Assembly (NCBI GenBank): GCA_964579825.1
Contig: CAZOHT010000010.1
Coordinates: forward strand, 36,624-100,623
Direction: 5' to 3'
Origin: an uncultured Anaerolineaceae bacterium
GTDB taxonomy: Bacteria > Chloroflexota > Limnocylindria > Limnocylindrales > CSP1-4
Length of the DNA: 64,000 nucleotides
Below are positions 2,219 to 29,408 of the stretch, in pieces; the first letter of the stretch is position 1; each line of letters opens with the position of its first letter. The position numbers and the translations under genes were made by a program. A model generated the notes under the pieces. It saw only the letters and a list, made by a program, of their open reading frames with translations, made no database searches and was not told the DNA's origin.

Positions 2219-3046
2219 TCAGTCCACCGTTCCAGCCAGACGATTGCCGGCCAGGAACGCCCGATAGGCCAGGACCGGGTCATCGAAGGAGAACCGGACG
2301 GTCCGCTCCCCCACTCGCTCCGAGCCCGGGACGAGCGCCGCGTAGTCGGCGTGGATCCCGACGGCGTAGTCGACCTCGATGACGGCCGGCGGCCCGACGC
2401 GCAGGACGTCCAGCTCGCCCGCAGCCGCTCGACGGACGGCGCGCTCCGATGCCGCCCGGATCAGATCGCCGGCGACCGTCGGGTGGAGCGAGGCCGCGCC
2501 GTGGTTGCCGGCGGCGTCCTTGACGACGACCCGTTCCGCCCATGGCAGCCAGCCGGCGACCTCCTCGGCCAGGGCGTCGTCCCCCGCGACCAGGCCGACC
2601 GGCACGCCCCAGCCACCCAGCACGAGCGCATTGAGGCCGTACTCGCCGGTCGGGCGCCCGTCCAGGCGCGTCTCGACGGGCCGGCCTGAGTAGGTGTGGG
2701 CGATCGTCCCGGTCGGATGGCCGGCCCGGGCGTGGTAGCCGATGAACAGGGCGACGTCCACGCCGGCGTCCGGGCCGGCGCCCTGGACCATCGACCAGAC
2801 CTTCTGGCCCTGGATGACCCGCGCCGCCGGGTGGAGCGCAGCCGGCAGCAGGTTGAACATCGAGCCGTGGCTGTCGTTGACGACGACCTCGGTGGCGCCG
2901 CCGGCCAACACGCCCTCGATGGCCGCGTTCGTCTCGCCGACCATCAGGTCCACCATCGCCGGGTAGCGGGCGTGGCCGGAGCCGGTGGGACCCGGGTGGT
3001 TGACGCCGGCGATGCCCTCCATGTCGACGCTGATCCAGGCTTTCAT
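2219..3046 (-). CDS. dppA: D-aminopeptidase, peptidase family M55 (DppA-like)
   Basis: N-terminus MKAWISVDMEGIAGV and the later NDSHGSM segment are hallmark M55/DppA motifs. Length 275 aa fits the family. Confidence 0.8.
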   Translation of the reverse strand: MKAWISVDMEGIAGVNHPGPTGSGHARYPAMVDLMVGETNAAIEGVLAGGATEVVVNDSHGSMFNLLPAALHPAARVIQGQKVWSMVQGAGPDAGVDVALFIGYHARAGHPTGTIAHTYSGRPVETRLDGRPTGEYGLNALVLGGWGVPVGLVAGDDALAEEVAGWLPWAERVVVKDAAGNHGAASLHPTVAGDLIRAASERAVRRAAAGELDVLRVGPPAVIEVDYAVGIHADYAALVPGSERVGERTVRFSFDDPVLAYRAFLAGNRLAGTVD

Positions 3047-6194: not shown

Positions 6195-6461
6195 TCTCCC
6201 AGCTCCCCACCTGAGCCTTCCATACCCCTCCGGTCCCCACCCCGGACTGGTGCGCCTCCGCACCATCTGTCGCGGATCGGACTGGCGCGAATGACCCGGA
6301 AGTACTACCGTCTAGCTCTCGGCACGTAGTACCGATGGACCACCGGTGGACACGCTTATTTGTGCCCCACCGACCGGTCACGTTCATCCATTCCAGGTCT
6401 TATCTCGCAGCAGGACTATCCCTCGCTGCAGGCGACCCAGGGGGCACCATTGCGCGATCTG

Positions 6462-7646
6462 TTGGCATCGTCCACACATCTCGCCGGCATCGACTCGTCC
6501 AGCGCGATCGGCCCGGCGGGACGCCCGAGCGGGCGCGAATCGACCGTCCTCGTGGTCGGTGGCGCCGGGTATGTCGGGTCCATCCTCGTGGCCCGACTGC
6601 TGGACTCCGGGTACGACGTCCTCGTGCTCGATCCACTGCTGTACAGCGGCGACTCGTTGGCGGCGGTCCTGGGCCGACCGGGCTTCGAACTCCATGTCGG
6701 CGACAGCCGCGACGAGGCGATCGTCCGGTCGCTGCTGAGTCGAGCCGGATCCGTGGTTCACCTGGGGGAGATCGTCGGCGATCCGGCGTGCGAACTCGAC
6801 CCGACGGTGACCGTGGCGGTCAACTACACCGCGTCGATCCGCCTGGCGGAGCTGGCCCAGCAGGCGGGCGTCGAGCGCTTCATCTACCCATCGTCCTGCA
6901 GCGTCTACGGCGCCACCGACGTGGTCGTCGATGAGCTCGGCGCACACAACCCGGTCTCGCTCTATGGTCGAGTCAAGTCCGCCTCCGAGGAACACATCCT
7001 CGACCTCAGGACGGACCGCTTCCACCCGACCGTCTTCCGCCTGGCCACCGTCTACGGCCTGTCTCCGCGCCCGCGCTTCGATCTCGTGGTGAACGTCCTC
7101 GCCGGGCGCGCCGCCGCGGATCGACGGATCGTGGTCCAGGGCGGCGGGCAGTGGCGACCGTTCGTCCACGTCGCCGATGCGGCATCGGTCCTGGCCGCGA
7201 CCCTCACCATGCCGCTCGAGCAGGTCTCAGGCGAGATCTTCAACCTCGGCTCCAATCTCCAGAACCACACGATCGCCGGCGTCGCAGAGCTCGTCCGCAA
7301 GCACGTCCCGGATGTCGCGATCGAAGTCACCGAGAGTGTCGATCCGCGCAACTACCGGGTCGATTTCGACAAGCTTGCGACGGTCTTCGGCTTCCAGCCC
7401 TCCCGTACCGTCGATGACGGGATCGCGGAGATCGTGCGAGCCGTCGACGACCGGCACATCGTGGACATCCGGGATGCCTTCCACAGCAACGTCCGGGCCC
7501 TGGTGGAGACCGACGCCCGTCACCGCCTCTGGCGAGAGGACCTGGCGGGACGCCCCGCTGACGCCTTCCGACCGCGCGATGTCGAGGTGCTGCAGCGGGT
7601 GATGCCGACGCGTCGTCTTCCGCTCCTCGAGGACGCCGTCACCTAG
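6462..7646 (+). CDS. NAD-dependent epimerase/dehydratase (extended SDR)
   Basis: Rossmann motif VLVVGGAGYVGS and catalytic SSCSVYG...YGRVK (YxxxK). Start is uncertain: in-frame candidates are TTG 6360, TTG 6462 and GTG 6552. 6462 keeps the Rossmann beta1 strand without a long non-family N-extension. Confidence 0.75.
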   Translation: MASSTHLAGIDSSSAIGPAGRPSGRESTVLVVGGAGYVGSILVARLLDSGYDVLVLDPLLYSGDSLAAVLGRPGFELHVGDSRDEAIVRSLLSRAGSVVHLGEIVGDPACELDPTVTVAVNYTASIRLAELAQQAGVERFIYPSSCSVYGATDVVVDELGAHNPVSLYGRVKSASEEHILDLRTDRFHPTVFRLATVYGLSPRPRFDLVVNVLAGRAAADRRIVVQGGGQWRPFVHVADAASVLAATLTMPLEQVSGEIFNLGSNLQNHTIAGVAELVRKHVPDVAIEVTESVDPRNYRVDFDKLATVFGFQPSRTVDDGIAEIVRAVDDRHIVDIRDAFHSNVRALVETDARHRLWREDLAGRPADAFRPRDVEVLQRVMPTRRLPLLEDAVT

Positions 7647-7817: not shown

Positions 7818-8087
7818 ATGACATCAGAGACCGCATCTACCACTCGTGATCGGATCCGGGGGGTCATCACGGCCCATGGGCATCTGCCCGTGGATGTGAC
7901 GACCCTGGCCGATGACGCCGACCTGTTCCAGGCCGGCATGACCTCGCACGCGAGCGTCAATCTCATGCTCGGACTCGAGGCGGAGTTCGACATCGAGTTC
8001 CCGGATGCGATGCTCAAGCGAAGCGTCTTCCAGAGCGTGTCGGCCATCGCCGCCGCACTCGCTGAGCTTGGTGTCGACGCCGCATGA
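7818..8087 (+). CDS. acyl/peptidyl carrier protein (cognate carrier of the adjacent aa:CP ligase)
   Basis: 89 aa. DLFQAGMTSHASVNLM matches the carrier-protein phosphopantetheine-Ser helix II region. ATG at 7818 is preceded by AAGGGA. The stop overlaps the next start (ATGA). Confidence 0.8.
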   Translation: MTSETASTTRDRIRGVITAHGHLPVDVTTLADDADLFQAGMTSHASVNLMLGLEAEFDIEFPDAMLKRSVFQSVSAIAAALAELGVDAA

Positions 8088-9259
8088 GCGCCGCCCTCGA
8101 TCGCGAGCAGGCGTTCCTGGCGACCATCCGTCGGATCGCGGACGAGGTCGCGGCACCCAACGCGGACGACGTGGACCGCAACGCCCGCTTCCCGCAGGAG
8201 ACGATCGACGCGCTGAAGGCCGAACGGGCCCTGTCGGCCTGCATCCCCGAGGCGTATGACGGGGGTGGGATCTCGCTCGAGACGATCGCCGCGGCCTGCT
8301 TCGAGCTTGGTCGCCGGTGCGGCGCGAGCGCCATGGTCTTCGCCATGCACAACATCAAGGTGGCGTCCATCGTGCGACACGTGGACGACTCACCAGCCTT
8401 CCAGGCGTACCTGCGCGACGTCTCGCGCGAGCAGCGCCTCGTGGCGTCGGTGACGTCGGAGATCGGGACGGGCGGCGACATGGGTCGCTCCATCGCGGCC
8501 GTCACGCCCGATGTCGAGGGGCGGGCCACGTTCGAGAAACAGGCCCCGACCGTTTCCTATGCGGCCTACGCGGACGACCTCCTGACGACCCTTCGCCGAG
8601 CGCCGGATGCCGAGCCCGGCGACCAGGTCCTCGTGCTGACCCGGCGCGGCGAGTTCACCCTCGAGCAGACCGGCACGTGGGATCCGATGGGCATGCGCGG
8701 CACCTGCTCACCCGGCTATATCGTCCGCGGCGACATCCCCGTGGAGAACGTCATGCCCGTGCCGTTCTCGACCATCGGCCCGGAGTCGATGGTGCCCATC
8801 TCGCACATCCTCTGGTCGCATCTCTGGCTGGGCATCGCGACCGACGCGTTCGATCGTGCCCGCGCGTTCGTCCGGGCCAGTGCGCGGAACCGGCCGGACG
8901 TGATCCCGCCGACCGCCGCGCGGCTGTCGCAGCTCATGAGCGAGTTGTCGCTCCTGCGCGCCGAGGTCTCGACCGGGCTCCGCGACTGGACGGACGCCAA
9001 CGCCGGCGGCGATCGGGAGTCGCTGACGACGATGGCGATGATCCTGCGCTTCAACAACCTGAAGATCGCGGCATCGGACCAGGCGCCGCGGGTGTGCCAG
9101 GGGGCGATGAGCGTGTGCGGCATCGTCGGCTACAAGAACGACACGCCATACAGCGTGGGCCGGCACCTGCGCGACAGCATGTCGGCGTGCCTCATGGTCG
9201 CCAACGAGCGGATCCACCAGACGAACGCCAGCCTGCTGTTGATCGCCAAGGACGTCTAA
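8084..9259 (+). CDS. acyl-CoA dehydrogenase family flavoprotein (probably acts on carrier-protein-bound substrate)
   Basis: ACAD-like layout over 391 aa (TSEIGTGGDM, WDPMGMRGT, C-terminal helical domain). Translationally coupled on both sides. Confidence 0.75.
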   Translation: MSAALDREQAFLATIRRIADEVAAPNADDVDRNARFPQETIDALKAERALSACIPEAYDGGGISLETIAAACFELGRRCGASAMVFAMHNIKVASIVRHVDDSPAFQAYLRDVSREQRLVASVTSEIGTGGDMGRSIAAVTPDVEGRATFEKQAPTVSYAAYADDLLTTLRRAPDAEPGDQVLVLTRRGEFTLEQTGTWDPMGMRGTCSPGYIVRGDIPVENVMPVPFSTIGPESMVPISHILWSHLWLGIATDAFDRARAFVRASARNRPDVIPPTAARLSQLMSELSLLRAEVSTGLRDWTDANAGGDRESLTTMAMILRFNNLKIAASDQAPRVCQGAMSVCGIVGYKNDTPYSVGRHLRDSMSACLMVANERIHQTNASLLLIAKDV

Positions 9260-10188
9260 TGACCGCGTACCGCGCGGCCACCGCCGAGCAGGCGGCCTTC
9301 CTCGCCGACCTGGTGGAGCACGGCCATCTCGTGGCGACCGGCGTCGACGGCATCTACGGCCACGGTCCCGACTTCGATCGCGTGAGGCTGGCCTTCAGCG
9401 AGGTGATCTGGCGCCTCTCGGCCCCAGACGCCCCGGAACAGATGCGCTTCCCTCCGCTGCTGCCGCGGCACGAGATCGAGACGAACGGCTACCTGGCCTC
9501 CTTCCCGCACCTCGCGGGCACGGTGTTCTCGTTCGACGGCGACGAGGCGGACGCGCTCGAGTTGGAGGCCGTCGCCGCCCGGCACGAGGACTGGAGCCGA
9601 TTCCAGTCGATGACCGACCTGGTCGTCCTCCCGGCCGCCTGCTATCCGGTCTACCCCCAGGTCGCCAAGCGCGGACCGCTCACGCTCGAGGGCGTGACCG
9701 TGGATACGGGTCCGGCCTGGGTCTTCCGCCGAGAGCCGTCGGGCGATCCGGCGCGCCTGCAGATGTTCCACATGCACGAGCTCGTCCGGATCGGCGATCC
9801 CGATGTGGTGGCGGCGTGGCGGGACACGTGGCTCGGCCGGGTCACGGACCTGTTCGCGCGCCTGGGCCTGCAGGCCTGGTCGGAGATCGCGAACGACCCC
9901 TTCTTCGGGCGAGCCGGACGGATGCTCGCCGCGAACCAGCGAGCCCAGGAGTTGAAGTTCGAGCTCGTCGCGCTCGTCGGCGGCCCGGAGCCGACGGCGA
10001 TCGCCTCGTTCAACTACCACCAGGACCACTTCACGGCCGCCTACGGGATCGGCCTGGAGGGGGGCGGCGTCGCCCACACCGGCTGCCTCGGGTTCGGGGT
10101 GGAACGGATCGCCCTCGCGATGTTCCGCGCGAACGGGCTGGACGTGGCCACGTGGCCGGCCGAGGTGCGCTCGGAGCTGTGGCCATGA
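9259..10188 (+). CDS. amino acid--[carrier protein] ligase, truncated seryl-tRNA-synthetase-like class II enzyme
   Basis: 309 aa with class II aaRS motif 2 (VFRREPSGDPARLQMFHMHE) and motif 3 (GCLGFGVERIALAM). There is no N-terminal tRNA-binding arm. TAATG overlap with the upstream gene. Confidence 0.8.
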   Translation: MTAYRAATAEQAAFLADLVEHGHLVATGVDGIYGHGPDFDRVRLAFSEVIWRLSAPDAPEQMRFPPLLPRHEIETNGYLASFPHLAGTVFSFDGDEADALELEAVAARHEDWSRFQSMTDLVVLPAACYPVYPQVAKRGPLTLEGVTVDTGPAWVFRREPSGDPARLQMFHMHELVRIGDPDVVAAWRDTWLGRVTDLFARLGLQAWSEIANDPFFGRAGRMLAANQRAQELKFELVALVGGPEPTAIASFNYHQDHFTAAYGIGLEGGGVAHTGCLGFGVERIALAMFRANGLDVATWPAEVRSELWP

Positions 10189-11150
10189 CCCGGGGCATGG
10201 TCAGCCTGTTCGGCCACGACCCGGCGACCTACACGCCGCACTGGCTGCATGGCGGCGACCGGACCTATCTCGAGACCGATTGCTTCACGGACATCGTCAT
10301 CGAGTTGCTGCACGCGCGCGGCGACGAGCCAGTAGCCGCCCTGGGGTCGTTCGTCCGGATGGACTTCGAGAACGACCAGTGGACGTTCTTCAAGCCACAC
10401 GCCGTGGACCTCGAGGTCCTGTACGGGATGGACATCCACGAGATGCAGCCCTTCCGCCCGATCCCGCAGCAGATCGAGGAACTGCTCGGGCTGGGACGGA
10501 CGATGACCGTCGAGCTCGACGCGTGGTACCTGCCGGACACGGCCGCGACGAGCTATGGCAACGCGCACGTCAAGACCGGCGTCATCGCCGAGTCGATCGA
10601 TCTCGCGGGCGAGCGGTTCCGCTACTTCCACAACGCCTCGCTGTACGAACTGGGCGGCGACGACTTCCGTGGGATCTTCCGCCAGGGGCCCGGCTGGTCC
10701 GAGGACGTACTGCCGCCCTATCTCGAACTGATCCGGTTCGACGCGGGTCCATCCCTTCACGGCGAGGACCTGCGGGCGGCGGCGCGTGGGCTGCTCCGCG
10801 GGCACCTGGACCGGATCGTGCCGGGCAACCCGTTCGAACGGTTCGACGATCGCCTCCAGGCCGACCTCCCGACGATCCTGGCCGGTGACGACAAGCTGTA
10901 CCACGCGTACACGTTCGCCACGTTCCGGATGGCCGGATCCGGGTTCGAACTCCTGGGATCGCACGTGGACTGGCTCCTCGGCGAGGCCGGCGCACCGGCC
11001 TCGGCCGCGATGGCGCGCATCGTCGATGGCTGCAAGCTGCTGGGCTTCAAGTTGGCGCGGCGCCGCCCGTTCGACCCGAGCGAGGCCATGGCCGGCCTGC
11101 GCGATTCGTGGACCGAGGCGATAGGGTCGCTCGACGACGCCGTACGCTAG
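10185..11150 (+). CDS. DUF1839-family protein (conserved partner of aa:CP ligases, function unknown)
   Basis: 321-aa ORF starting MTRGMVSLFGHDP at an ATGA overlap. Family assignment is from recollection of the cassette (TYLETDCFTD..., WYLPDTA...). Coding-like composition. Confidence 0.6.
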   Translation: MTRGMVSLFGHDPATYTPHWLHGGDRTYLETDCFTDIVIELLHARGDEPVAALGSFVRMDFENDQWTFFKPHAVDLEVLYGMDIHEMQPFRPIPQQIEELLGLGRTMTVELDAWYLPDTAATSYGNAHVKTGVIAESIDLAGERFRYFHNASLYELGGDDFRGIFRQGPGWSEDVLPPYLELIRFDAGPSLHGEDLRAAARGLLRGHLDRIVPGNPFERFDDRLQADLPTILAGDDKLYHAYTFATFRMAGSGFELLGSHVDWLLGEAGAPASAAMARIVDGCKLLGFKLARRRPFDPSEAMAGLRDSWTEAIGSLDDAVR

Positions 11151-11154
11151 GGGC

Positions 11155-13740
11155 ATGCGCGCCGCCATGACACCTGCCCGGACCCGGATCGACGGGCACG
11201 AGCACATCCCGATCGACTCTGGCTGGCAGGCCGCGTCCGCCACACCCGACACCCGACCCGACCCCGGGAGTCTCGAGGGCCTCGAGTGGCTGGAGACCCG
11301 TGTCCCCGGTACGGCGGCCGGCGCGATGCGCGAGGCGGGGCGCACGCTGGGCGACCTGGACGCCGCGGACTGGTGGTTCCGGGTGACGTTCGAGGCGATG
11401 CCGGCGACCAGCGCAGAGGAGGTCGTCCTGTGCTTCGGCGGGATCGCCACGCTGGCCGAGGTCTTCCTGAACGGCGAGTCCCTGCTGACGAGCGAGTCGA
11501 TGTTCGCGGACCACGCCGTGGACGTCGGGTCGCGCCTGCGCGGGACGAATGAGCTCCTCATCCGATGCCGGGCGCTGACCCCACAGGTGGCCGTCCAGCG
11601 CAAGCCTCGGGCCCGCTGGCGGACGCGGCTCGTGGCGGACAACAACCTGCGCTGGTTCCGGACGATGCTGCTCGGGCGGATCCCCGGTTTCGCCGCCGGA
11701 CCCGCGGCTGTCGGGCCGTGGCGACCGGTCTGGCTGGAGCGACGGCGCCGTGTCCAGATCGACGACCTGGCGTTGCGGCCCCGGCTCGACGGCGACGATG
11801 GGCTCCTCGTCATCGATGCCGCCGTGCGTGGGATCGGCGGTTTCGCGCCGGACGCCGTCGGCGTCGAGGTCTCGGGGCCGACCGGTGTCGTCCACGCGTC
11901 CCTCACCGTCTCCTCGAACGGGGACGCCGTCACCGCCCGGGGCACGGTCCGCGTGCCAGCGGTCCAGCGTTGGTGGCCGCACACCCACGGCGACCCCGTC
12001 ACCTACGCCGTCCGGCTCTTCGTCGAGTCTGGCGGGACGGCCACGTCCGTCGACGCCGGCCGGGTCGGCTTCCGCGACATCGCGCCTGGCCCCACGGCGG
12101 ATCACGACATCGATCGGGACGGACTGGACCTGCAGGTCAACGGGATCCCGATCTTCGTCCGTGGGGCGCTGTGGACCCCGCTCGATATCGTCGGGCTCGC
12201 GCCGTCGGTCGACGACCTGCGGACCGCCATCCTCGCGGTCCGTGACGCGGGCATGAACATGCTGCGGGTCCCGGGCGTCGGTGCCTACGAGCAGGCGGCG
12301 TTCCACGACCTGTGCGACGAACAGGGGATCCTCGTCTGGCAGGACCTGATGTACGCGAGCATGGATTACCCGTTCGTCGACGACCGGTTCCGGGCCGTCG
12401 CGGAAGCCGAGGCACGGGCGGTCGTCGCGCGGATCGGGGGCCGTCCCAGCACGGCCGTCGTCTGTGGAAGCAGCGAGATCGAACAGCAGGTGGCGATGCT
12501 CGGCCTGGACCTGGGCCTCGCCCGGATCCCGTTCTTCGACACAACCGTACCCGCGATCCTGGCCGCCGCCGACGTCGACGCCGTGTTCGTGCCGTCCACC
12601 CCGTTCGGCGGCGACCTCCCGATGCGCCCGGACCGCGGCGTGACCAACTACTACGGCGTCGGTGGGTACCGCGGTCCGCTCTCGGACGCCCGGACGAGCG
12701 GCCTCCGCTTCGCCGGGGAGTGCCTCGCGTTCGCCAACGTGCCCACGGAGGCGTCGCTCGCCGAGCTCATCGATGGCCTGCCCGACCAGGGCTACGTCAA
12801 CCACCCGATCTGGAAGCTCGGTGTCGCCAGGGATCCCGGTGCGGGCTGGGACTTCGACGACATGCGCGACCACTATCTGCGGACGGTGTTCGGGCTGGAT
12901 CCGATCCCGATCCGACGCGGCGACGGGGACCGCTATCTCGAACTCTCGCGTGCGGTGACGGGCGAGATCATGGCCTACGCCTTCGGCGAATGGCGGCGCA
13001 CCGGCTCGCCATGCCGTGGCGGGCTGATCCTGTGGCTGCGCGATCTCGTCGGAGGGGCCGGCTGGGGCGTCGTGGACCACCGTGGCGCCCCGAAGACGGC
13101 CTACCACCACCTCCGGCGGATCCTGGCCCCCACGGCCGTCTGGCTGACGGATGAAATGACGGGCGGTGTCGTCGCGCACGTCGCCAACGACGGACCGACG
13201 CCCCTGTCGGCCAGGCTGCGCGTCGGGCTCTACTCGGACCTCGAACTGCCGGTCGGCCGGGGAGAGACCGCCATCGAGCTGCCCGCCCACGGCGCGGTCC
13301 ACCACGACGTCGAGGCGGTCATCGGTCGATTCGTGGATGCCGCCTGGGCGTTCCGGTTCGGGCCCCCCGCCCAGGACGCCATCGTCGTCAGCCTGGAACG
13401 CGACGGTGCGCACGGCGTCGAGCTGCTGTCGCAGGCCTTCCACTTCCCGGCCGGTCGACCACTGACCCCGGAACGCGGTGACCGGCTCGGTCTGTCGGCC
13501 AGCGCGGAACGGCACGGCGACGGGACGATCCGGCTCACGGTCGCGAGCCGGCGCCTGGCGTACGGGGTGCGGATCCATGTGCCCGGCTTCGCGACCTCCG
13601 ACGATGCGTTCTCCGTGGAGCCGGGTGGGACCCGGACGGTCGCGCTGACGCCGCTGACCCCGGACGCCGCCTTCCCTGGTGGCAACGTGTCCGCCCTGAA
13701 CCTGCGGGGTCGCGTCACGATCGGCGAGCGCAGCCCGTGA
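11155..13740 (+). CDS. glycoside hydrolase family 2-like protein (beta-mannosidase-like architecture)
   Basis: 861 aa. WWFRVTF, LCFGGIATLAEVFLNG, VNGIPIFVRGALW and NMLRV...DEQGILVWQDLMYA resemble GH2 sugar-binding and TIM-barrel segments. Confidence 0.7.
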   Translation: MRAAMTPARTRIDGHEHIPIDSGWQAASATPDTRPDPGSLEGLEWLETRVPGTAAGAMREAGRTLGDLDAADWWFRVTFEAMPATSAEEVVLCFGGIATLAEVFLNGESLLTSESMFADHAVDVGSRLRGTNELLIRCRALTPQVAVQRKPRARWRTRLVADNNLRWFRTMLLGRIPGFAAGPAAVGPWRPVWLERRRRVQIDDLALRPRLDGDDGLLVIDAAVRGIGGFAPDAVGVEVSGPTGVVHASLTVSSNGDAVTARGTVRVPAVQRWWPHTHGDPVTYAVRLFVESGGTATSVDAGRVGFRDIAPGPTADHDIDRDGLDLQVNGIPIFVRGALWTPLDIVGLAPSVDDLRTAILAVRDAGMNMLRVPGVGAYEQAAFHDLCDEQGILVWQDLMYASMDYPFVDDRFRAVAEAEARAVVARIGGRPSTAVVCGSSEIEQQVAMLGLDLGLARIPFFDTTVPAILAAADVDAVFVPSTPFGGDLPMRPDRGVTNYYGVGGYRGPLSDARTSGLRFAGECLAFANVPTEASLAELIDGLPDQGYVNHPIWKLGVARDPGAGWDFDDMRDHYLRTVFGLDPIPIRRGDGDRYLELSRAVTGEIMAYAFGEWRRTGSPCRGGLILWLRDLVGGAGWGVVDHRGAPKTAYHHLRRILAPTAVWLTDEMTGGVVAHVANDGPTPLSARLRVGLYSDLELPVGRGETAIELPAHGAVHHDVEAVIGRFVDAAWAFRFGPPAQDAIVVSLERDGAHGVELLSQAFHFPAGRPLTPERGDRLGLSASAERHGDGTIRLTVASRRLAYGVRIHVPGFATSDDAFSVEPGGTRTVALTPLTPDAAFPGGNVSALNLRGRVTIGERSP

Positions 13741-15545
13741 CGAGCGCATCGGCGATCGCCGGCGTGCCGTCGTCCCGCCCGCTCTGGCTGGACGTCGCAC
13801 CGGACCCCGTGTTCGGTACCCACCATGCGCCCCGCCCGGAGACGGCCCAGCGGACGGCGGTCCTCATCCTGCCGCCCTGGGGCTGGGATGAGGTGACCTC
13901 GTATGCCGCTCGACGCGCGTGGGCCGAACGGCTCGCCGCCGACGGCCATCACGCGCTCAGGATCGACCTGCCCGGGACGGGGGACAGCGGTGGCTCGCCA
14001 TCCGACCCGGACCGCGTCCAGGCCTGGACGGATGCCGTCTCGTCGGCGGCCGCCTGGCTCCGCTCGCAACCCGGCGTCACGCGCGTGGCGGCCATCGGGC
14101 TCGGGCTCGGTGGCCTCGTCGCAAGCCGCTCGATCGCCCAGGGCGCCGCCATCGACGATCTCGTGCTGTGGAGCGCGCCCGTCCGCGGCCGCTCGTTCCT
14201 GCGAGAACTGCGGGCCTTCGCCGCGATGCAGAGCTCTCGGTACAGCCTGACCGGGGAGCCGGAACCCGAGCTGCTGCCGGAAGGCTGGCTGGAAGTGGGC
14301 GGATTCGTCCTGTCCGCGGAGACGGTGGCGGACCTCGGGCCGCTCGAGATGACCGACATCCCTCCGGGCCGCGTGCAGCGAGCGCTGCTTCTCGAGCGCG
14401 ACGGGATGGGCCACGACGCGGCCCTCGAGGCCGCCCTGGTCGACCGGGGCGTCACGGTCGACGCGGCGAAGGGCGACGGATGGACCGCGATGGTCTTCCA
14501 TCCGGAGCGGTACGCCCCGCCACTGGACGTCTTCGATCGAGTGGTCGCGTGGCTGGCCGACGCGCCGGCAGGTGGGGCACCGGCTCTTGCCCAGCCGACC
14601 CCGACAGCGCTCGACACCGTGACGCTCCAGCTCGAGGGCCGGTCAGTCCAGGAATCCGCCGTCCGGATCGACCAGCCGTTCGGTCGGCTGTTCGGGATCC
14701 TCGGCCGCCCCGTGGACGTGCCCGCCACGGACCTGTGCGCCGTGTTCCTGAATGCCGGCGCCGTCCGGCGGATCGGCCCGAACCGGCTTTGGGTGGAAGG
14801 CGCCCGGCGCTGGAATGCGCGGGGCATCCCGACCATCCGGATGGACCTCGAGGGCATCGGCGATGCCGACGGCGATCCGCGACGGTACCTGGATGTCGGC
14901 AACTACTACACACCGGAGTACGGCGCCGAGGTCGGCGCCACCCTCGACGAGCTGGGTCGACGCGGGTTCGGCCCGCGCTTCGTCGTCATCGGCCTGTGCG
15001 CCGGGGGCTATTGGGCCTTCCAGACAGCTGCCGACGATCGCCGGATCGTGGAGGCCATCATCCTGAACCCGCGGGCCATGATGTGGGATCCCGACCTCCT
15101 CACGCGTCGTGAGGCCCGTAAGGTCGAGCGCCTCCTGGAGCCAGGACTCTGGAACAGCATCATCCACGGCGAGATCCCTGCGTCGAGGATGCTGAGCGTA
15201 TCCAGGGCGGTCGCGCGGCGGTCCGCAGCGACGGCCTTCGGGGCCGTACGGAGACTCGGTGCGGGGCGACGTGACACCTCGACGCCGGGGGGCACGGTCG
15301 AGACACGCCTCGACGCCCTGCGCGAGCACGGGACGCGGACCATCCTGGCGTTCTCGGGCGATGAGCCGGTGTACGGAGAGCTCGAGGACGAGGGGCTCTT
15401 CACGCAGCTCGGACGCTGGCCGAACCTGAGCGTCGAACGACTCCCCGGGGTCGATCATACGGTCCGTCCGATCGCCGCCCAGCGTGCCGTCCACGAACTG
15501 CTCGGTCGCGAAGTCGAGCGCCTCCTTGGCGCCGGCCCGGGCTGA
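13737..15545 (+). CDS. tandem alpha/beta-hydrolase-fold protein (two fused domains)
   Basis: Two repeats of the pattern 'A(V/L)(I/F)L(P/N)...DLxGxGDSxG...nucleophile elbow'. The first elbow is AIGLGLGG (no Ser/Cys) and the second is VIGLCAGG (Cys). GTGA overlap with the GH2-like gene. Confidence 0.7.
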   Translation: MTSASAIAGVPSSRPLWLDVAPDPVFGTHHAPRPETAQRTAVLILPPWGWDEVTSYAARRAWAERLAADGHHALRIDLPGTGDSGGSPSDPDRVQAWTDAVSSAAAWLRSQPGVTRVAAIGLGLGGLVASRSIAQGAAIDDLVLWSAPVRGRSFLRELRAFAAMQSSRYSLTGEPEPELLPEGWLEVGGFVLSAETVADLGPLEMTDIPPGRVQRALLLERDGMGHDAALEAALVDRGVTVDAAKGDGWTAMVFHPERYAPPLDVFDRVVAWLADAPAGGAPALAQPTPTALDTVTLQLEGRSVQESAVRIDQPFGRLFGILGRPVDVPATDLCAVFLNAGAVRRIGPNRLWVEGARRWNARGIPTIRMDLEGIGDADGDPRRYLDVGNYYTPEYGAEVGATLDELGRRGFGPRFVVIGLCAGGYWAFQTAADDRRIVEAIILNPRAMMWDPDLLTRREARKVERLLEPGLWNSIIHGEIPASRMLSVSRAVARRSAATAFGAVRRLGAGRRDTSTPGGTVETRLDALREHGTRTILAFSGDEPVYGELEDEGLFTQLGRWPNLSVERLPGVDHTVRPIAAQRAVHELLGREVERLLGAGPG

Positions 15546-15585: not shown

Positions 15586-16386
15586 ATGACCGACCCTGGG
15601 CTCGACGCGCAGCAGCGTCGGGCGAACGACCGACTGTGGCGCCGTGGCCGGGATCTCGTGTCGGCCTACGCGACGCGTCTTCTGCGACCGGTCGAGGTGT
15701 TGCTGCTCGTCCGATATCGCGAGGCGCTGTCGGCGCGGACCCTGGAACTCGGCAGCGGGGCTGGAAGGCTGACCGGATACCTGATCGAGGTGGGATCCGA
15801 CGTCCACGGCATCGACATCTCGCCGGCGATGATCGCCTACTGCCGCAACCGCTATCCTCGCGGCACCTTCACCAGGGCGGATCTGCGGGCGGTCGACACG
15901 ATCCCAGGTGGACCGTTCGATGCGGTCTTCGCGCCCTTCAACGTCCTCGATGTACTGACCGACGGCGAACGCGGCGCGCTCCTCGACCGGATCGGCGCGG
16001 TCCTCGCCGACGACGGGCTGTTCATCATGTCGACGCACAATCGCGGATACGCGCCGCGCCTGGCCGACCCATTCGCCCTTCGTGGCAAGACCTTGCGCCG
16101 GATCGTCGAAACGGCGATCCATCTCCCAACCTGGTACCGGAACCGTAAGCGCGTCCTGCCGTTCGAGCACGAGGAGCCGGGCTACGCCGTCCTGAACGAC
16201 GTTTCGCACGACTTCAAGGCCCTGCATTACTACATCTCACGGGACGCGCAGGAGCAGCAGCTCGAGGCTCATGGGTTCGCATTCATCGAGTGCCTTGACC
16301 TCGACGGTCGCGAGGTGCCGCCCGGAGCCTTGGCCGAGGACTGCCCGGAACTCCACTACGTGGCACGACGAGCCCGGACGACCTGA
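15586..16386 (+). CDS. class I SAM-dependent methyltransferase
   Basis: Motif I LELGSGAGRLTGYL, then HGIDISPAMI and DAVFAPFNVL. ATG at 15586 lies 40 nt after the upstream stop. Confidence 0.8.
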   Translation: MTDPGLDAQQRRANDRLWRRGRDLVSAYATRLLRPVEVLLLVRYREALSARTLELGSGAGRLTGYLIEVGSDVHGIDISPAMIAYCRNRYPRGTFTRADLRAVDTIPGGPFDAVFAPFNVLDVLTDGERGALLDRIGAVLADDGLFIMSTHNRGYAPRLADPFALRGKTLRRIVETAIHLPTWYRNRKRVLPFEHEEPGYAVLNDVSHDFKALHYYISRDAQEQQLEAHGFAFIECLDLDGREVPPGALAEDCPELHYVARRARTT

Positions 16387-16388
16387 CC

Positions 16389-17819
16389 TCAGTCGTACGA
16401 CTCCAGACAGCGGCGGACATGGTCGCGTCCGACGTTCCAGTCGTAGGCGCGGAAGACGTGCAGATCTGCGATGTGCTGCGCGGCCGAGTAGAACATCTCG
16501 TACTGGAGCTGCCGTCCCGCGAACTCCGTGCCGACCAGGTCCCACATGAGCTTCAGGAGCTTGACCCGCTCGCGCGCCGACATCGTGGCGGAGCCGTAGT
16601 AGCGCTCGACGTCCTCGGCGGTCTCGGGGGCCTCGAAGCTCTCCTCGGACGGCATCGCGATGAAGCCGCCGCCGCCCAGTTCGCGCAGTGCCCGCATGAG
16701 GTCCACGACCCAGCGGCGCTGCAGGCTGATGCCGGCGTGGACGAATCGGGGCGCCGGGAGGGCCATGGCACCGCGCATCTCCGGCTTGGCCTCGGCCGCC
16801 AGGATGATCGCCTCGAGGGCCGAACAGAACGCTGCGATGTCGCCGCCCAGCTGCGCCTGGACCGGCGGGATCGCCGACAGGCCATGCGCATCCGCGAGCT
16901 CGATCGCCAGCCCGGACGCGAACTCCATCTTGACCAGGAACCGGATCAGACCCTGGTAGTTCGCCAGGAGGTGCGCGCCGGTCTCGTAGAACTGGGCGTT
17001 GACGAGCTTGATGTCGCGATGGACGAACACGTGCTCCCAGGGCACGAACACGTCGCGCATGACGACCAGGCTGTCCGACTCGTCGAAGCGGGAGGAGAGC
17101 GGGTAGTCGAACGTGCTGGTCGCGAGTGAGGCATACGGCCGTCGCGGGTAGACGCGCAGGCCCTCGCTGGCGAGGGGCATGACCACGGAGATCGCGTAGT
17201 CCTCGTCGCCCGGCTGCAGCGGTGTGATGTAGCTGAGGAACAGGTAGTCCGCGATGGCTGCGGACGTGCCGATCATCTGGGCGCCGCGGATGACGATCCC
17301 ATCGTCACGCTCCTCGACGATGCCCGGGTACAGGAATGGCTCCGGCTGGAGGTGGGCGGGCTTGGACCGGTCGACCTGGGGCGGTGTGATGGCGTAGGCC
17401 ACGTACCAGTCGTTGTCGCGGGCCTTTCGGTAGAAGTCGGCCACGTTGTCACCGAATCGCTTCCCACCGCGGTCGAACACCCCGCGCATCCCGAAGAAGG
17501 CGGTGATCATCGCGGCGGCGTGGTCCGGCGTCCGGCCCATCAACCCGAATCCGCCTTCGGCCCAGTGCCGATGCATGCGACGGCGCATCGTGAGGTCGGC
17601 CGCATCGCGTGGCGGAAGCCACATCGCGTCGTGTGTCGCACCATCCGCCTCGAAGCCGATGTCGCCGCGCTCGATCGCGCCGTCGTACAGGGACGCGGTC
17701 ACGCGCGCCGGACCGGCAAAGCCCGGGTGGGTCGTGACGTCGTCGACCAGCTCACCGTCCAGCAGGATGGTCCGGCCGTCGTGAGCGATCCCGGCGAGAT
17801 AGTCAGATCCGCGACGCAT
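16389..17819 (-). CDS. hpaB: 4-hydroxyphenylacetate 3-monooxygenase-family oxygenase component (HpaB/TC-FDM)
   Basis: 476 aa with HpaB-family segments (ITPPQVDRSK, IRGAQMIGT, FDYPLSSRFDE, YSAAQ). Substrate unknown. Confidence 0.75.
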   Translation of the reverse strand: MRRGSDYLAGIAHDGRTILLDGELVDDVTTHPGFAGPARVTASLYDGAIERGDIGFEADGATHDAMWLPPRDAADLTMRRRMHRHWAEGGFGLMGRTPDHAAAMITAFFGMRGVFDRGGKRFGDNVADFYRKARDNDWYVAYAITPPQVDRSKPAHLQPEPFLYPGIVEERDDGIVIRGAQMIGTSAAIADYLFLSYITPLQPGDEDYAISVVMPLASEGLRVYPRRPYASLATSTFDYPLSSRFDESDSLVVMRDVFVPWEHVFVHRDIKLVNAQFYETGAHLLANYQGLIRFLVKMEFASGLAIELADAHGLSAIPPVQAQLGGDIAAFCSALEAIILAAEAKPEMRGAMALPAPRFVHAGISLQRRWVVDLMRALRELGGGGFIAMPSEESFEAPETAEDVERYYGSATMSARERVKLLKLMWDLVGTEFAGRQLQYEMFYSAAQHIADLHVFRAYDWNVGRDHVRRCLESYD

Positions 17820-17955
17820 GCAGGGGTTGCCTCATCGTTCGATCGATCGAGCCCGGCGGTCCGGGGACGACGAGAGTATGGGATGGACGGCTCGGCCGAC
17901 CACAGGACGTTCGTCGGGGTGCGTGAACGCACCAGACGGCGCACGATACCGCGTG

Positions 17956-18489
17956 ATGAGCGACGCCGAACTCTTCCGCCAGGCTTTCAGGCGCTATGCG
18001 ACGACCGTCGCGGTCCTGACCTACCAGGATTCCTCTGACATCGCGTGCGGGATGACCGCCACGTCGATCTGCTCACTGTCGGCGTCGCCGCCGTCCTTGC
18101 TGGTGTGCATCAACAAGGAGGCGCGGGCCCACGCCGAGATCATCGGGCGGGGCTCGTTCGGGGTGAACCTCCTGTCGGTCGAGCAGCGGCCGATCGCCCT
18201 GCACTGCAGTCGCACCGGCGGGGACAAGCACCTCCGCACGGACTGGCTTTCGGAGGATGCGGCGGCCGGCGCGACGCCGCGGCTCATCGGTGCGCTGGCC
18301 CACCTCGAGCTGCAGATCGACCGGACGTACGAGGCGTACTCCCACACGATGTTCCTGGGCCTGATCCAGTCAGTCTGGCTCAACCCCGTGGACGCCCCGC
18401 CCCTGCTCTACCACGGCGGGACGTACGGTCAGCTGGAGACGGCGGCGGAACGGACCGAGCGATTCCACTGGGAACTGCACGCCGACTGA
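17956..18489 (+). CDS. NAD(P)H-flavin reductase (flavin reductase-like domain)
   Basis: FRQAFRRYATTVAVLT...GMTATSICSLSASPPSLLVCINK is the classic HpaC/Fre-type flavin reductase domain. Divergent from hpaB. Confidence 0.8.
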   Translation: MSDAELFRQAFRRYATTVAVLTYQDSSDIACGMTATSICSLSASPPSLLVCINKEARAHAEIIGRGSFGVNLLSVEQRPIALHCSRTGGDKHLRTDWLSEDAAAGATPRLIGALAHLELQIDRTYEAYSHTMFLGLIQSVWLNPVDAPPLLYHGGTYGQLETAAERTERFHWELHAD

Positions 18490-20619: not shown

Positions 20620-20734
20620 CGGTCTCGGAGATCGCGTGGCGGGGGTGGTGGCGAAGCGCAACAGCCCGCGCCGGCATCGATTGACCGTCCAGACCGGACC
20701 ATCCATCATGGTGCACCCCGTTGGAGGACGATTC

Positions 20735-21418
20735 GTGGCTGAAACTCGTCGGTTCGCGACGACCCGGACCTGGTTGTGGTTCATCGCGCTCGCGACGATC
20801 GTCGGTGCGACCGTCGCGATCCTTGCAAGTCAACTCGTCGCCCCCACCTACGCGGGTCGCGCGACGATCCTCGTCTCGCCGATGCCGCGCGAGGCCCAGA
20901 TCACGAATGGCGATCTCGAGGTCACTCGGGTCGCGGCTGCCACGCTCGGCGAGCTGGCGACGACAGGCCCCGTCCTCGATCGAGCGATCGATTCCACAGA
21001 TGTCGCCACGAATGCGACGGCCCTCGCAAAGGTGGTCACGACGCGCGTGCCAGTCGGGACGAGCCTGCTCGAGATCACGGTCACTCAGTCCAACAAGGAC
21101 GCGGCTGCAGAGCTGGCCAACGCGATCGCCGCCGAACTGATCGACTATGCCGACCCGAACCGCTCCAACGGAGGGTCCGCCTGGCAGGTCGACGCGGCCG
21201 TGGTCGACCCCGCGATCCCGCCTACCCAGGCCGAGGGCTTCGGGACCGGGATGACCGTCGTCCTTGCTGCTCTTATCGCCATGGTCATCGCGGCGAGCCT
21301 CGCGTTCCTCGTTGAGAACATGCGGGCCAACCAACCCTTCTCCGACAAGGATCGGAGCGAAGGTCGACGCAGCGACTCGAACTTGGACCGTGGAGACTCC
21401 CGCCAGCCGATCGGCTAA
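20735..21418 (+). CDS. wzz: polysaccharide chain-length determinant (Wzz/PCP-like), no kinase domain
   Basis: TM1 (WLWFIALATIVGATVAILA), a periplasmic-type segment (PVLDRAI...TSLLEITVTQSNKDAAAELANAIA) and a C-terminal TM (MTVVLAALIAMVIAASLAFLV). GTG at 20735 lies 6 nt after GGAGGA. Confidence 0.7.
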   Translation: MAETRRFATTRTWLWFIALATIVGATVAILASQLVAPTYAGRATILVSPMPREAQITNGDLEVTRVAAATLGELATTGPVLDRAIDSTDVATNATALAKVVTTRVPVGTSLLEITVTQSNKDAAAELANAIAAELIDYADPNRSNGGSAWQVDAAVVDPAIPPTQAEGFGTGMTVVLAALIAMVIAASLAFLVENMRANQPFSDKDRSEGRRSDSNLDRGDSRQPIG

Positions 21419-21445: not shown

Positions 21446-22813
21446 ATGAGAGCGGCTGCCCTCCGGATCTCGACCGTGACCGGCGTTGACGAGCGGGTCG
21501 CGCTTCGTCTTGCGATCCTCGGGATCCTCGCGTCGGGTGCGATCGTCGGAGCGGCCGTTCTGACACGTGGCCTGCTGCCCGCCGCGGGTCTGGCGGGGGC
21601 CCTGCTCGTCATCGTGGCGAGCCTCCGGTGGCCGCTGATGCTGCTCTACGTCTATGTGTTCCTGATCCCGCTCGAGGAACTCATCGTCCTGGGCCCGTTC
21701 GGGACCGTCACGCGCATCGCGGGCGTCCTGTTCATCGTGGCCTACGCACTGCCGCGGATCGGGCGCCTTCGACTGACGGCGATGCCGTCTGCTGCGTGGG
21801 CCTACCTCGGTTGGGCCATCCTGAGCATCGTGTGGGCGTTGGATCCGACCGTGGCCATGGCGGAGGCCGCCGTCCTCATCCTCCTGTTCGCCATCGGGAC
21901 CGTCATCGCCATCGTGGTCGTCGAGCGCCCGTCCGTCGTGGGCCCCCTCATGTGGACGTATAGCGTCTCCGCCACGATCATCGCCCTCTACGGGCTATTG
22001 CTGTTCCTGATGGGCCAGACGATCGATGGCAACCGGATCGCCGCGCTCCCCGGACAGGACCCGGCCTACTACGCGGCCCTGCTGCTCCCAGCCCTGGCCT
22101 TCAGCCTCGACCGTCTCGTCCAGGGCCGGGATCTCGCACCCAGCGCAGCGGTGGCCATCATCACGCTGACCGGCGTCGTGGTGTCCGGCACACGCGGCGC
22201 CTGGGTCAGCGCCGGCATCGTCATCCTGTTCTTCGTCCTGCCGCGGATCAGCACGCCGAAGCGGATCATCGCCGTCCTTGGGATGCTCATCGTGCTGCTT
22301 GGGAGCCTCCAGGTCCCGGCTGTCTCGTCGCTGCTCACCGAACGGACCGAGATCGCCGTGTCGAGCGGAGGCGCCGGACGGACGGACATCTGGACCGTCG
22401 GCATCGGGATCATCAAGCAGGCCCCGATCGTGGGCGTGGGTCTGGCGAACTTCCCGACCGCCTATACGGCCGAACTCGTGCGCGACTCCGACGTCGGTGT
22501 CTACTCGGCGGAAAACCCCGCCCACCGCAACTCGCACAGCATCATCATCGGGACGATGGGTGAGTTGGGCATCATCGGTTTCGCATTCCTGTGCCTCCTG
22601 ATCCTGCCGCTGGTGTTCCGACCCGGTTGGGGAGTCGATGCCGTGGCGATCCAGTCCGCCCTCGTGGCGCTCGTCATGAGCGCCCTGTTCCTCGACATCA
22701 TCAATCGCAAGCAGTTCTGGCTCATCGTCGGGCTTGCGTGTGGCCTGGCCTACGTCGCTCGTTCGGAACGTCTGCGCACGTTGGTCCGACCGTCGGCGCC
22801 CACGCCGAGCTGA
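21446..22813 (+). CDS. wzy: O-antigen ligase/polymerase-family membrane protein (Wzy-like)
   Basis: More than 10 TM segments and the Wzy_C-type loop (TRGAWVSAGIVILFF ... HRNSHSIIIGTMGELGIIG). Confidence 0.75.
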   Translation: MRAAALRISTVTGVDERVALRLAILGILASGAIVGAAVLTRGLLPAAGLAGALLVIVASLRWPLMLLYVYVFLIPLEELIVLGPFGTVTRIAGVLFIVAYALPRIGRLRLTAMPSAAWAYLGWAILSIVWALDPTVAMAEAAVLILLFAIGTVIAIVVVERPSVVGPLMWTYSVSATIIALYGLLLFLMGQTIDGNRIAALPGQDPAYYAALLLPALAFSLDRLVQGRDLAPSAAVAIITLTGVVVSGTRGAWVSAGIVILFFVLPRISTPKRIIAVLGMLIVLLGSLQVPAVSSLLTERTEIAVSSGGAGRTDIWTVGIGIIKQAPIVGVGLANFPTAYTAELVRDSDVGVYSAENPAHRNSHSIIIGTMGELGIIGFAFLCLLILPLVFRPGWGVDAVAIQSALVALVMSALFLDIINRKQFWLIVGLACGLAYVARSERLRTLVRPSAPTPS

Positions 22814-29291: not shown

Positions 29292-29408
29292 ACTATCCGA
29301 CTATATCCGACCGGACGAACCGCACCCGGACCGGGCCGCCCGCGCACGCTACGATCGGGGCCTGATGACACCGCTTTCGCCGACGCAGGCCGAAGTCGAC
29401 CACCCTGG

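Follow-up and report, generated by a model that had tools for sequence, protein, structure and literature searches.

Six coupled genes in a Chloroflexota contig

We analysed a 64,000-nucleotide stretch of DNA from an uncultured Anaerolineaceae bacterium of the phylum Chloroflexota (assembly GCA_964579825.1, contig CAZOHT010000010.1, forward-strand positions 36,624 to 100,623), hereafter the window. Positions 7818–11150 of its + strand hold a cassette of four open reading frames (ORFs), each with high third-position GC, which encode a carrier protein (CP), a flavoprotein with the acyl-CoA dehydrogenase (ACAD) fold, an amino acid:[carrier protein] ligase (aa:CP ligase) and a DUF1839 protein. The genes meet at ATGA (8084–8087), TAATG (9257–9261) and ATGA (10185–10188), and their positions and overlaps are those given in an earlier annotation that a model made from the letters and ORF translations alone (the sequence-only reading). 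In addition, a gene for a glycoside hydrolase family 2 (GH2)-like protein starts four bases past the DUF1839 stop codon, and its own stop overlaps the start of a double alpha/beta-hydrolase gene in the sequence GTGA. The coupled unit is made up of six genes, 7818–15545:

7818–8087, + strand: CP, 89 amino acids (aa); PF00550, NF005480
8084–9259, + strand: ACAD-fold flavoprotein without the canonical catalytic Glu, 391 aa; Acyl-CoA_dh_N
9259–10188, + strand: aa:CP ligase, 309 aa, a class II aminoacyl-tRNA synthetase (aaRS) core derived from seryl-tRNA synthetase (SerRS); NF005479
10185–11150, + strand: DUF1839 protein, 321 aa, papain-fold Cys/His enzyme, predicted CP-dependent transacylase; PF08893, model fold
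11155–13740, + strand: GH2-like glycosidase, 861 aa, beta-mannosidase-related, cytoplasmic; alignment to 6bye
13737–15545, + strand: double alpha/beta-hydrolase, 602 aa, C lobe with Cys421-His574; halves match TIGR03101 and TIGR03100 below cut-off

Signal peptides and transmembrane segments are absent from all six proteins, and the operon products are entirely cytoplasmic. No riboswitch or leader was found upstream of the CP gene, and a scan of 6–19 kb for σ70-like promoters and terminators gave nothing exceeding the shuffled expectation.

The gene order is conserved across phyla

The ligase family is broad: it spans more than 7000 protein clusters, and a scan of one genome per GTDB species returned at least 592 species representatives with a ligase relative. 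We fetched the best 80 of these loci and read their gene order by tblastn with the window proteins; 64 loci were long enough to judge. The full order CP–ACAD–ligase–DUF1839–GH2–hydrolase is present in 44 of the 64, the order of the four-gene core in 57, and GH2 in 54. The core order in 57 of 64 loci places the cassette far beyond chance, and the sequence-only reading, which took the unit to be these four genes, had its core right and its boundary too short.

The operon-bearing loci belong to Chloroflexota/Limnocylindria, Actinomycetota (Solirubrobacterales and Gaiellales), Acidobacteriota, Bryobacteraceae and Alphaproteobacteria, the nearest relatives being those from Chloroflexota/Limnocylindria (68–72% identity). 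All six genes are annotated on a plasmid of Azospirillum brasilense Sp7 and on the megaplasmid of Mycetohabitans rhizoxinica, while a Rhizobium leguminosarum plasmid carries the first four, followed by an IS5 element.

The carrier protein and its ligase

The CP matches PF00550 with 29.7 bits (cut-off 20.8) and the equivalog NF005480/PRK07081 with 105 bits (cut-off 72). Its phosphopantetheine site, Ser43 in the motif GMTSHASV, is kept in 76 orthologues, so that the CP has the modifiable serine on which the sequence-only reading depended; the acidic residues E53, D57, E59 and D62 that follow are conserved in the same set. Within the window, neither a motif scan nor searches with AcpS of Escherichia coli and nine AcpS queries of the cluster type turned up a significant match to a phosphopantetheinyl transferase (PPTase). 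A census of 17 related loci, with 9 such ORFs, puts AcpS-type PPTases among the most frequent flanking families, and several of the genes lie directly upstream of the CP gene.

The ligase, encoded two genes downstream of the CP, exceeds the cut-off of the equivalog NF005479, 'amino acid--[acyl-carrier-protein] ligase' (379.1 bits against 357, residues 6–308), and matches the crystal structures of Bradyrhizobium Bll0957 (PDB 3mey, 4h2w) with E = 2e-70 and ~50% identity across the aligned core. The first of the profile searches proposed in the sequence-only reading has thus upheld its identification of a Bradyrhizobium/Agrobacterium-type aa:CP ligase cassette. Motif 2 (F156-R157-x-E159) and motif 3 (G-F279-G280-V-E-R283) are invariant against Bll0957 and metagenomic relatives, as are the zinc ligands C128 (AACYP), E174 (HMHEL) and C276 (HTGC). 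The latter align with the Cys-Glu-Cys set of Bll0957, which we take to be C131, E176 and C279, a numbering checked against the tagged PDB chain. Archaeal-type SerRS models (518 positions) align to the ligase at positions 309–503 only, the C-terminal catalytic core, and the SerRS structures 2cim and 3w3s match it in their catalytic parts alone. Judged by these alignments, the ligase is without an N-terminal tRNA-binding domain, and the intact motifs and missing tRNA-binding arm noted in the sequence-only reading are confirmed.

Aa:CP ligases are the textbook link between ribosomal and non-ribosomal amino-acid activation. Bll0957 and Agrobacterium Atu2573 use carrier proteins, not tRNA, as the acceptors of Gly or Ala (PMC5370406; PMC9437257). 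By analogy with Bll0957, Bll6282 and Atu2573, for which the activity has been shown, the window ligase would aminoacylate the phosphopantetheine thiol rather than tRNA. It is highly improbable that the enzyme is instead an ordinary or auxiliary SerRS paralogue that charges tRNA beside unrelated neighbours: JGI pipelines do label homologues 'seryl-tRNA synthetase' and there is a weak archaeal-type SerRS match, but the protein has only 309 residues, SerRS models score 56 bits against a cut-off of 611 and cover the C-terminal catalytic part alone, the aa:CP ligase cut-off is passed, the characterised relatives leave tRNA uncharged, and the order with the CP gene is fixed across phyla.

In Bradyrhizobium, bll0957 adjoins bll0958, an 'acd' gene, which places the biochemically studied enzyme in the same kind of cassette. 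The proteins of both genes are about three-fold more abundant in a phaR mutant (PhaR being a polyhydroxyalkanoate regulator) of Bradyrhizobium diazoefficiens under microaerobic conditions (PMC10888616), the sole expression clue that we found for the cassette.

Two observations on ligase relatives stand apart. The predicted CP-binding helix, GRAGRMLAANQRAQELKFEL (window 9880–9960, ligase residues ~208–235), is nearer to that of the engineered Bll0957 structures 4h2w–4h2y than to wild-type 3mey, which suggests carrier recognition of the other, Agrobacterium-like type. On plasmid pTM2 of Tistrella mobilis (locus L087, 6730–11040), a distant ligase relative (32% identity) lies in a different cassette, with a diiron oxygenase, an 84-aa ORF, an aaRS-related protein, a nitronate monooxygenase and a methyltransferase, which hints that aaRS-like loading and subsequent oxidative tailoring form a more general theme.

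The predicted fold of DUF1839 resembles that of carrier-dependent papain-like transferases

The second proposed profile search, that for DUF1839, likewise succeeded, PF08893 matching over the full length with 275 bits. Used singly or as a profile, the sequence found no match in the PDB, and among the orthologues BtrH_N was matched by one only, with E = 0.049. The family comprises 959 clusters at 50% identity. An AlphaFold2 (AF2) model built from 37 sequences (mean predicted local distance difference test score, pLDDT, 80; predicted template-modelling score, pTM, 0.79) is bipartite, with a papain-like alpha/beta N-terminal part (residues 33–186) and a helical C-terminal part (193–320). A Foldseek search of the PDB with this model returned 19 significant matches, all of them AziU3/U2, CtaG or CcbD (E = 2e-7 to 6e-4, probability 1.0, template-modelling scores 0.52–0.65); the next matches, with E >0.2, are phytochelatin synthase and cathepsins. 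Invariant residues include C33, H128, H149, T131, N150 and, in the helical domain, the patch L290-A-R-R-R294; the CP has its conserved acidic patch after Ser43. Specifically, C33 sits at the N-terminus of helix 33–44, a hallmark of papain.

CcbD, the lincosamide condensation enzyme, uses a Cys to transfer carrier-tethered proline to the amine of an amino sugar, and its docking site for the carrier protein is a C-terminal surface rich in arginine (PMC12945683). The papain-like ligase CtaG has the same bipartite architecture and a ping-pong mechanism that involves two carrier proteins; BtrH and AsbE have been put into its class (PMC12865890). From the modelled fold, DUF1839 most likely works like CcbD and CtaG, moving a CP-bound acyl group to an amine. 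Because it has no detectable sequence homology to them, we do not file it as a member of the CcbD/CtaG family.

Some metagenomic proteins (P0495, P0517, P0473, P0506, P0411, P0530) are fusion ORFs, of the types ligase–DUF1839, ligase–DUF1839–GH2 and DUF1839–GH2. Since frameshift artefacts at the overlapping stop/start sites may produce such ORFs, they are weak evidence only.

The ACAD-fold protein lacks the catalytic glutamate

The ACAD-like protein matches Acyl-CoA_dh_N with 56 bits, its middle and C-terminal Pfam domains fall below threshold, and it aligns over its full length with the short-chain acyl-CoA dehydrogenases 7p98 and 2vig. The base position of medium-chain acyl-CoA dehydrogenase (MCAD), that of the Glu in YEG, fixed by spacing from the invariant R363-D364, is occupied by V372, which is Val or Ile in all orthologues. 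The position of the isovaleryl-CoA dehydrogenase (IVD) type is S240 (Ser or Thr in orthologues), beside the invariant H241. Three residues downstream of the canonical base position, an acidic residue (E/D375) is conserved. Against the PDB, a profile of 16 orthologues finds true ACADs at E = 2e-20, KijD3 at 2e-19 and DnmZ at 1e-18, with the amino-sugar N-oxygenases KijD3, DnmZ and ORF36 and the oxygenases DszC and MsuC together within 2e-19 to 1e-15. A flavin reductase gene follows the operon, with no HpaB gene, in eight loci (L004, L005, L024, L037, L040, L046, L050 and L090), and both genes are present in the window and three other loci; a trailing flavin reductase is a trait of the Chloroflexota-type loci nearest the window. 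In the window itself, an HpaB-family oxygenase lies back to back with the flavin reductase, just after the operon and a methyltransferase gene:

15586–16386, + strand (start inferred; longest ORF from 15484): class I S-adenosylmethionine-dependent methyltransferase, accessory neighbour; Methyltransf_25/11/12
16389–17819, − strand: HpaB-family two-component oxygenase; TIGR02309 with 277 bits, below cut-off
17818–18489, + strand: flavin reductase, possible partner of the ACAD-fold protein; PF01613 with 102 bits

The sequence-only reading had proposed that the tethered amino acid is loaded, dehydrogenated and then transferred or transformed by DUF1839. While the transfer is backed by the CcbD and CtaG fold neighbours, the dehydrogenation is not. 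A four-gene unit in which the aminoacyl-S-carrier undergoes classical alpha,beta (or prolyl-type) dehydrogenation before DUF1839 acts is a very unlikely arrangement, even though the protein has the ACAD fold, short-chain ACADs are its top PDB matches, its gene always follows the CP gene with an overlap, and E/D375 is conserved. Specifically, Glu is absent at both canonical base positions in every orthologue, the model NF053553 of PigA, a prolyl-S-PCP dehydrogenase like RedW and PltE, gives 17.9 bits where its cut-off is 500, N-oxygenases and DszC-type oxygenases lie just as close, and glycine, the substrate of Bll0957, has no beta-carbon; in addition, a flavin reductase trails the operon in this clade, and the unit is of six genes. 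The Val/Ile and Ser/Thr at the base positions, the PigA score, the equal nearness of N-oxygenases and the missing beta-carbon of glycine leave the dehydrogenation analogy possible but unsupported. The label 'dehydrogenase' is doubtful on these residues, and oxidation or oxygenation at nitrogen appears at least as likely as dehydrogenation; the loss of the Glu would make oxidation or oxygenation at the amino group or the Cα–N bond likelier than alpha,beta-dehydrogenation.

The GH2-like protein and the double hydrolase

The GH2-like protein aligns end to end with the Xanthomonas beta-mannosidase 6bye (E = 1e-43). Its acid/base E441 and nucleophile E522 fall at the positions of Xanthomonas Man2A that are mutated in 6byi and 6byg, and both are at least 95% conserved. 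The beta-mannosidase motif GWDWGP reads G-F179-A180-A181-G-P, and the NE motif reads S440-E441. With WDW and the Asn of NE, the signature of the −1 subsite is lost, which makes the protein GH2-like and probably not a beta-mannosidase; it is likely to be active on a different sugar, as a glycosidase or transglycosidase.

The AF2 model of the hydrolase (pLDDT 86) shows two alpha/beta-hydrolase lobes. Gly123 occupies the elbow of the N lobe, leaving that lobe without a nucleophile, while D222 and H255 are retained; in the C lobe, the elbow G-L-C421-x-G and D573-H574 are invariant. Cys at the nucleophile elbow is typical of dienelactone hydrolase and polyhydroxyalkanoate synthase. The N half scores 83 bits against TIGR03101 hydr2_PEP (cut-off 203) and the C half 61 bits against TIGR03100 hydr1_PEP (cut-off 168), scores at which the halves are related to exosortase-A-associated hydrolases 2 and 1 and are not members of these families. 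Foldseek with the double hydrolase found generic esterases, lipases and thioesterases only, giving no functional clue.

In a minimal variant of the locus, CP, ligase and double hydrolase occur with no ACAD, DUF1839 or GH2 gene (L012, L025, L057 and L074, also L008 and L076); near two of these loci, L012 and L057, lie a DAO-type oxidase, a family 4 glycosyltransferase (GT4) and DUF2334, or a divergent ACAD and an ATP-grasp gene. The hydrolase is the sole partner retained there, its GxCxG elbow Cys421 and H574 are invariant, and papain-fold enzymes are usually hydrolases, all of which would fit a division of labour in which the hydrolase (Cys421-His574) is the true aminoacyl transferase and DUF1839 is an editing or off-loading thioesterase for mis-loaded CP. 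We consider this quite unlikely, because the significant fold neighbours of DUF1839 include two transferases (CcbD and CtaG) and no hydrolase, some ORFs join DUF1839 to the ligase or to GH2, and Foldseek ties the hydrolase to generic esterases.

The operon is often found near glycan genes

Directly upstream of the operon lies a sugar epimerase gene, and a polysaccharide locus of the Wzx/Wzy type begins about 5 kb downstream of it:

6360–7646, + strand (true start probably ~6540): NAD-dependent sugar epimerase/dehydratase; PF01370 with 136 bits
20636–37086, both strands: Wzx/Wzy-type polysaccharide locus, context, with the members
20636–21418: chain-length determinant
21446–22813: Wzy_C
22857–23729: epimerase
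27729–29291, − strand: GINT1_N-like protein
29256–30602: GT4 glycosyltransferase
33163–34326, − strand: DegT aminotransferase
34323–35612, − strand: second GT4 glycosyltransferase
35713–37086: flippase

Three other loci (L001, L088, L090) likewise have epimerase or CapD-like genes beside the cassette. Pfam annotation of relatives' contigs shows flippase, GT2/GT4, CapD-like and deacetylase genes near the cassette and an AcpS-type PPTase beside the CP gene. A tblastn search with the window glycan genes, a low-sensitivity check, found homologues in 12 of 51 loci; owing to this insensitivity we replaced it by a Pfam census of 133 flanking ORFs in the 17 loci. The prominent families are group-1 glycosyltransferases (9 ORFs), ACPS (9), Glyco_transf_4 (6), Wzy_C (5), Bac_transf (4), GFO_IDH_MocA (4) and DegT (3), with Polysacc_synt also counted among them. 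In Tsukamurella, the ligase, CP and PPTase genes lie within an exopolysaccharide (EPS) cluster. Homologues of the window methyltransferase, whose similarity to an amine N-methyltransferase model is weak (NF041820, 56 bits), adjoin the operon in many loci.

These flanks bear on what the operon makes. It is possible, as a tentative second choice, that it forms a thiotemplated route, independent of non-ribosomal peptide synthetases, to a soluble small molecule, with the neighbouring glycan genes incidental; the product would be an aminoacyl or oxidised-glycyl glycoside, or a short oligo-Gly/Ala made by CtaG-like distal elongation. The structural relatives of DUF1839 all come from antibiotic or siderophore pathways, the six genes travel compactly on plasmids and beside insertion sequence (IS) elements, every product is cytoplasmic, the window glycan genes recur in only those 12 loci, and methyltransferase, HpaB-family oxygenase and flavin reductase are frequent neighbours. 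However, the conserved unit has no exporter, regulator or resistance gene, its flanks are dominated by glycosyltransferases, Wzy, flippase, priming transferase and DegT, the Tsukamurella relative is part of an EPS cluster, and the two halves of the hydrolase are similar to the pair of hydrolases associated with exosortase-A EPS loci.

An anti-phage defence role was rejected, as PADLOC matched nothing but the generic GH2 domain. Elsewhere in the window, a 511-aa ORF adjoins the flippase gene (37121–38656, − strand; PF04886 PT disordered-repeat, 25.1 bits, just below cut-off) and may encode a surface or secreted protein. An L-2-hydroxyglutarate oxidase (39047–40324, + strand; NF008726, 524 bits), a ComA-type phosphosulfolactate synthase (41079–41915, − strand) and an M55 D-aminopeptidase (2219–3046, − strand) have no evident tie to the cassette.

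A proposed pathway to N-acylated surface glycans

Our preferred reading, to which we give a probability of about one half, is that the six-gene operon makes an aminoacyl-derived N-acyl decoration of an amino sugar or cell-surface polysaccharide. In the first step, a PPTase encoded elsewhere in the genome would make holo-CP at Ser43. In the second, which has been demonstrated for relatives of the ligase, the zinc-dependent ligase would activate a small amino acid with ATP and esterify the CP thiol with it, the amino acid being glycine or alanine by analogy with the characterised relatives. The third and fifth steps and the acceptor are inferred. In the third, the ACAD-fold flavoprotein would alter the tethered aminoacyl group, more probably oxidising or oxygenating it at its amino group or Cα–N bond than dehydrogenating it. 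In the fourth, deduced from the modelled fold, DUF1839, as an enzyme of the CcbD/CtaG/BtrH kind, would take the acyl group onto Cys33 and pass it to an amine to give an amide, the acceptor most likely being an amino sugar or glycan precursor on the cytoplasmic side. In the fifth, GH2 and the Cys-type double hydrolase would process the sugar, as acceptor or as product, or else release the acyl group from its thioester. A more specific version seems unlikely as a whole: that the Glu-less ACAD is a reduced-flavin-dependent oxidase, and that an oxidised glycyl or alanyl group (N-hydroxy, nitroso or glyoxylyl) is amide-linked by DUF1839 to an amino sugar of a surface polysaccharide.

Several points weigh against the decoration of a glycan. 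The fold match of DUF1839 is moderate, with a root-mean-square deviation of 5–7 Å and an identity of 10–17%, and an independent survey, which places DUF1839 among papain-like proteins, gives it a rearranged C-(T/S)-H triad (PMC10318531). The minimal variant, which has no DUF1839, raises the prospect that the alpha/beta-hydrolase may be the primary transferase. A cytoplasmic GH2 protein with both catalytic Glu has no obvious place in a decoration pathway. The association with glycan genes is not universal: besides the low tblastn count, the Rhizobium copy is flanked by IS elements, and the Azospirillum copy by tail-fibre and autotransporter genes plus a GT9 glycosyltransferase.

In the literature searched, no study characterises this pathway, and DUF1839 is mentioned in a single paper. 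A review of 2022 still called the biological role of aa:CP ligases unknown (PMC9437257), a role that has been lacking since 2010. The ligase family itself was already known; new here are the complete conserved operon, a fold-based role for DUF1839, the doubt about the 'dehydrogenase' and the pointer to sugar or glycan acceptors. If decoration of a glycan is what the operon does, it would represent a new way for soil- and plant-associated bacteria to modify their surface polysaccharides, and CP-dependent amide formation would gain a new enzyme family. The more specific oxidised-glycyl or -alanyl version, if true, would add an undescribed glycan decoration in hundreds of soil- and plant-associated species and supply the missing role of the aa:CP ligases. 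The presence of the operon in cultivable, tractable bacteria (Azospirillum brasilense Sp7 and Mycetohabitans; four genes in Rhizobium; ligase and acd in Bradyrhizobium) opens the question to experiment.

Comparison with known systems

The closest characterised enzymes are the aa:CP ligases reportedly described by Mocibob et al. in 2010 and 2013, namely Bll0957 and Bll6282 of Bradyrhizobium (Gly) and Atu2573 of Agrobacterium (Ala). The window ligase shares with them the NF005479 family, the zinc ligands, the motifs, the truncated architecture and an adjacent CP gene, and its cassette shares with that of Bradyrhizobium the neighbouring ACAD gene. Its predicted CP-binding helix is closer to the engineered variant 4h2w than to wild-type Bll0957, and it is encoded in an uncultured, high-GC genome of Chloroflexota- or Actinomycetota-like character.

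The ACAD-fold protein is like the ACAD-fold amine N-oxygenases KijD3, DnmZ and ORF36, and like the two-component oxygenases DszC and MsuC, in the absence of the catalytic Glu, in comparable profile E-values and in a flavin reductase neighbour. Unlike for those oxygenases, no family model is passed and the substrate in the window is presumably carrier-tethered; an oxygenase activity is a candidate function.

The exosortase-A (PEP-CTERM) EPS module, TIGR03098–03101, comprises an AMP-forming ligase, an acyl carrier protein, hydrolase 1 and hydrolase 2. Both that module and the window operon type occur in polysaccharide loci and pair a CP and its loading ligase with two alpha/beta-hydrolases, and the halves of the 602-aa window protein match hydr2_PEP and hydr1_PEP in that order; however, the hydrolases are fused, the ligase is of a different superfamily, and the scores are far below the equivalog cut-offs.

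In DltABCD (teichoic acid D-alanylation) and in AlmEFG of Vibrio cholerae (glycine on lipid A), a carrier-loaded amino acid decorates a surface glycopolymer. The logic is similar, with a dedicated ligase, a small amino acid and a small carrier, and the window CP weakly matches DltC models (E = 8.6e-6). The Dlt and Alm ligases are adenylating enzymes of the ANL type and their transferases are membrane-bound (MBOAT/LpxL-type), whereas the window has a class II aaRS core, all of its products are soluble, and its operon adds an ACAD-fold enzyme, GH2 and DUF1839.

Compared with CcbD/LmbD, CtaG, BtrH and AsbE, DUF1839 has no detectable sequence similarity, its reported triad is C-(T/S)-H (PMC10318531), and its donor would be loaded by an aaRS-type ligase and not by an adenylation domain. 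It is like them in its predicted papain-like N-terminal domain, with Cys at a helix N-terminus, followed by a helical C-terminal domain, and in working with a stand-alone carrier that would bear an aminoacyl or acyl thioester; in the case of CcbD, the acceptor is an amino sugar.

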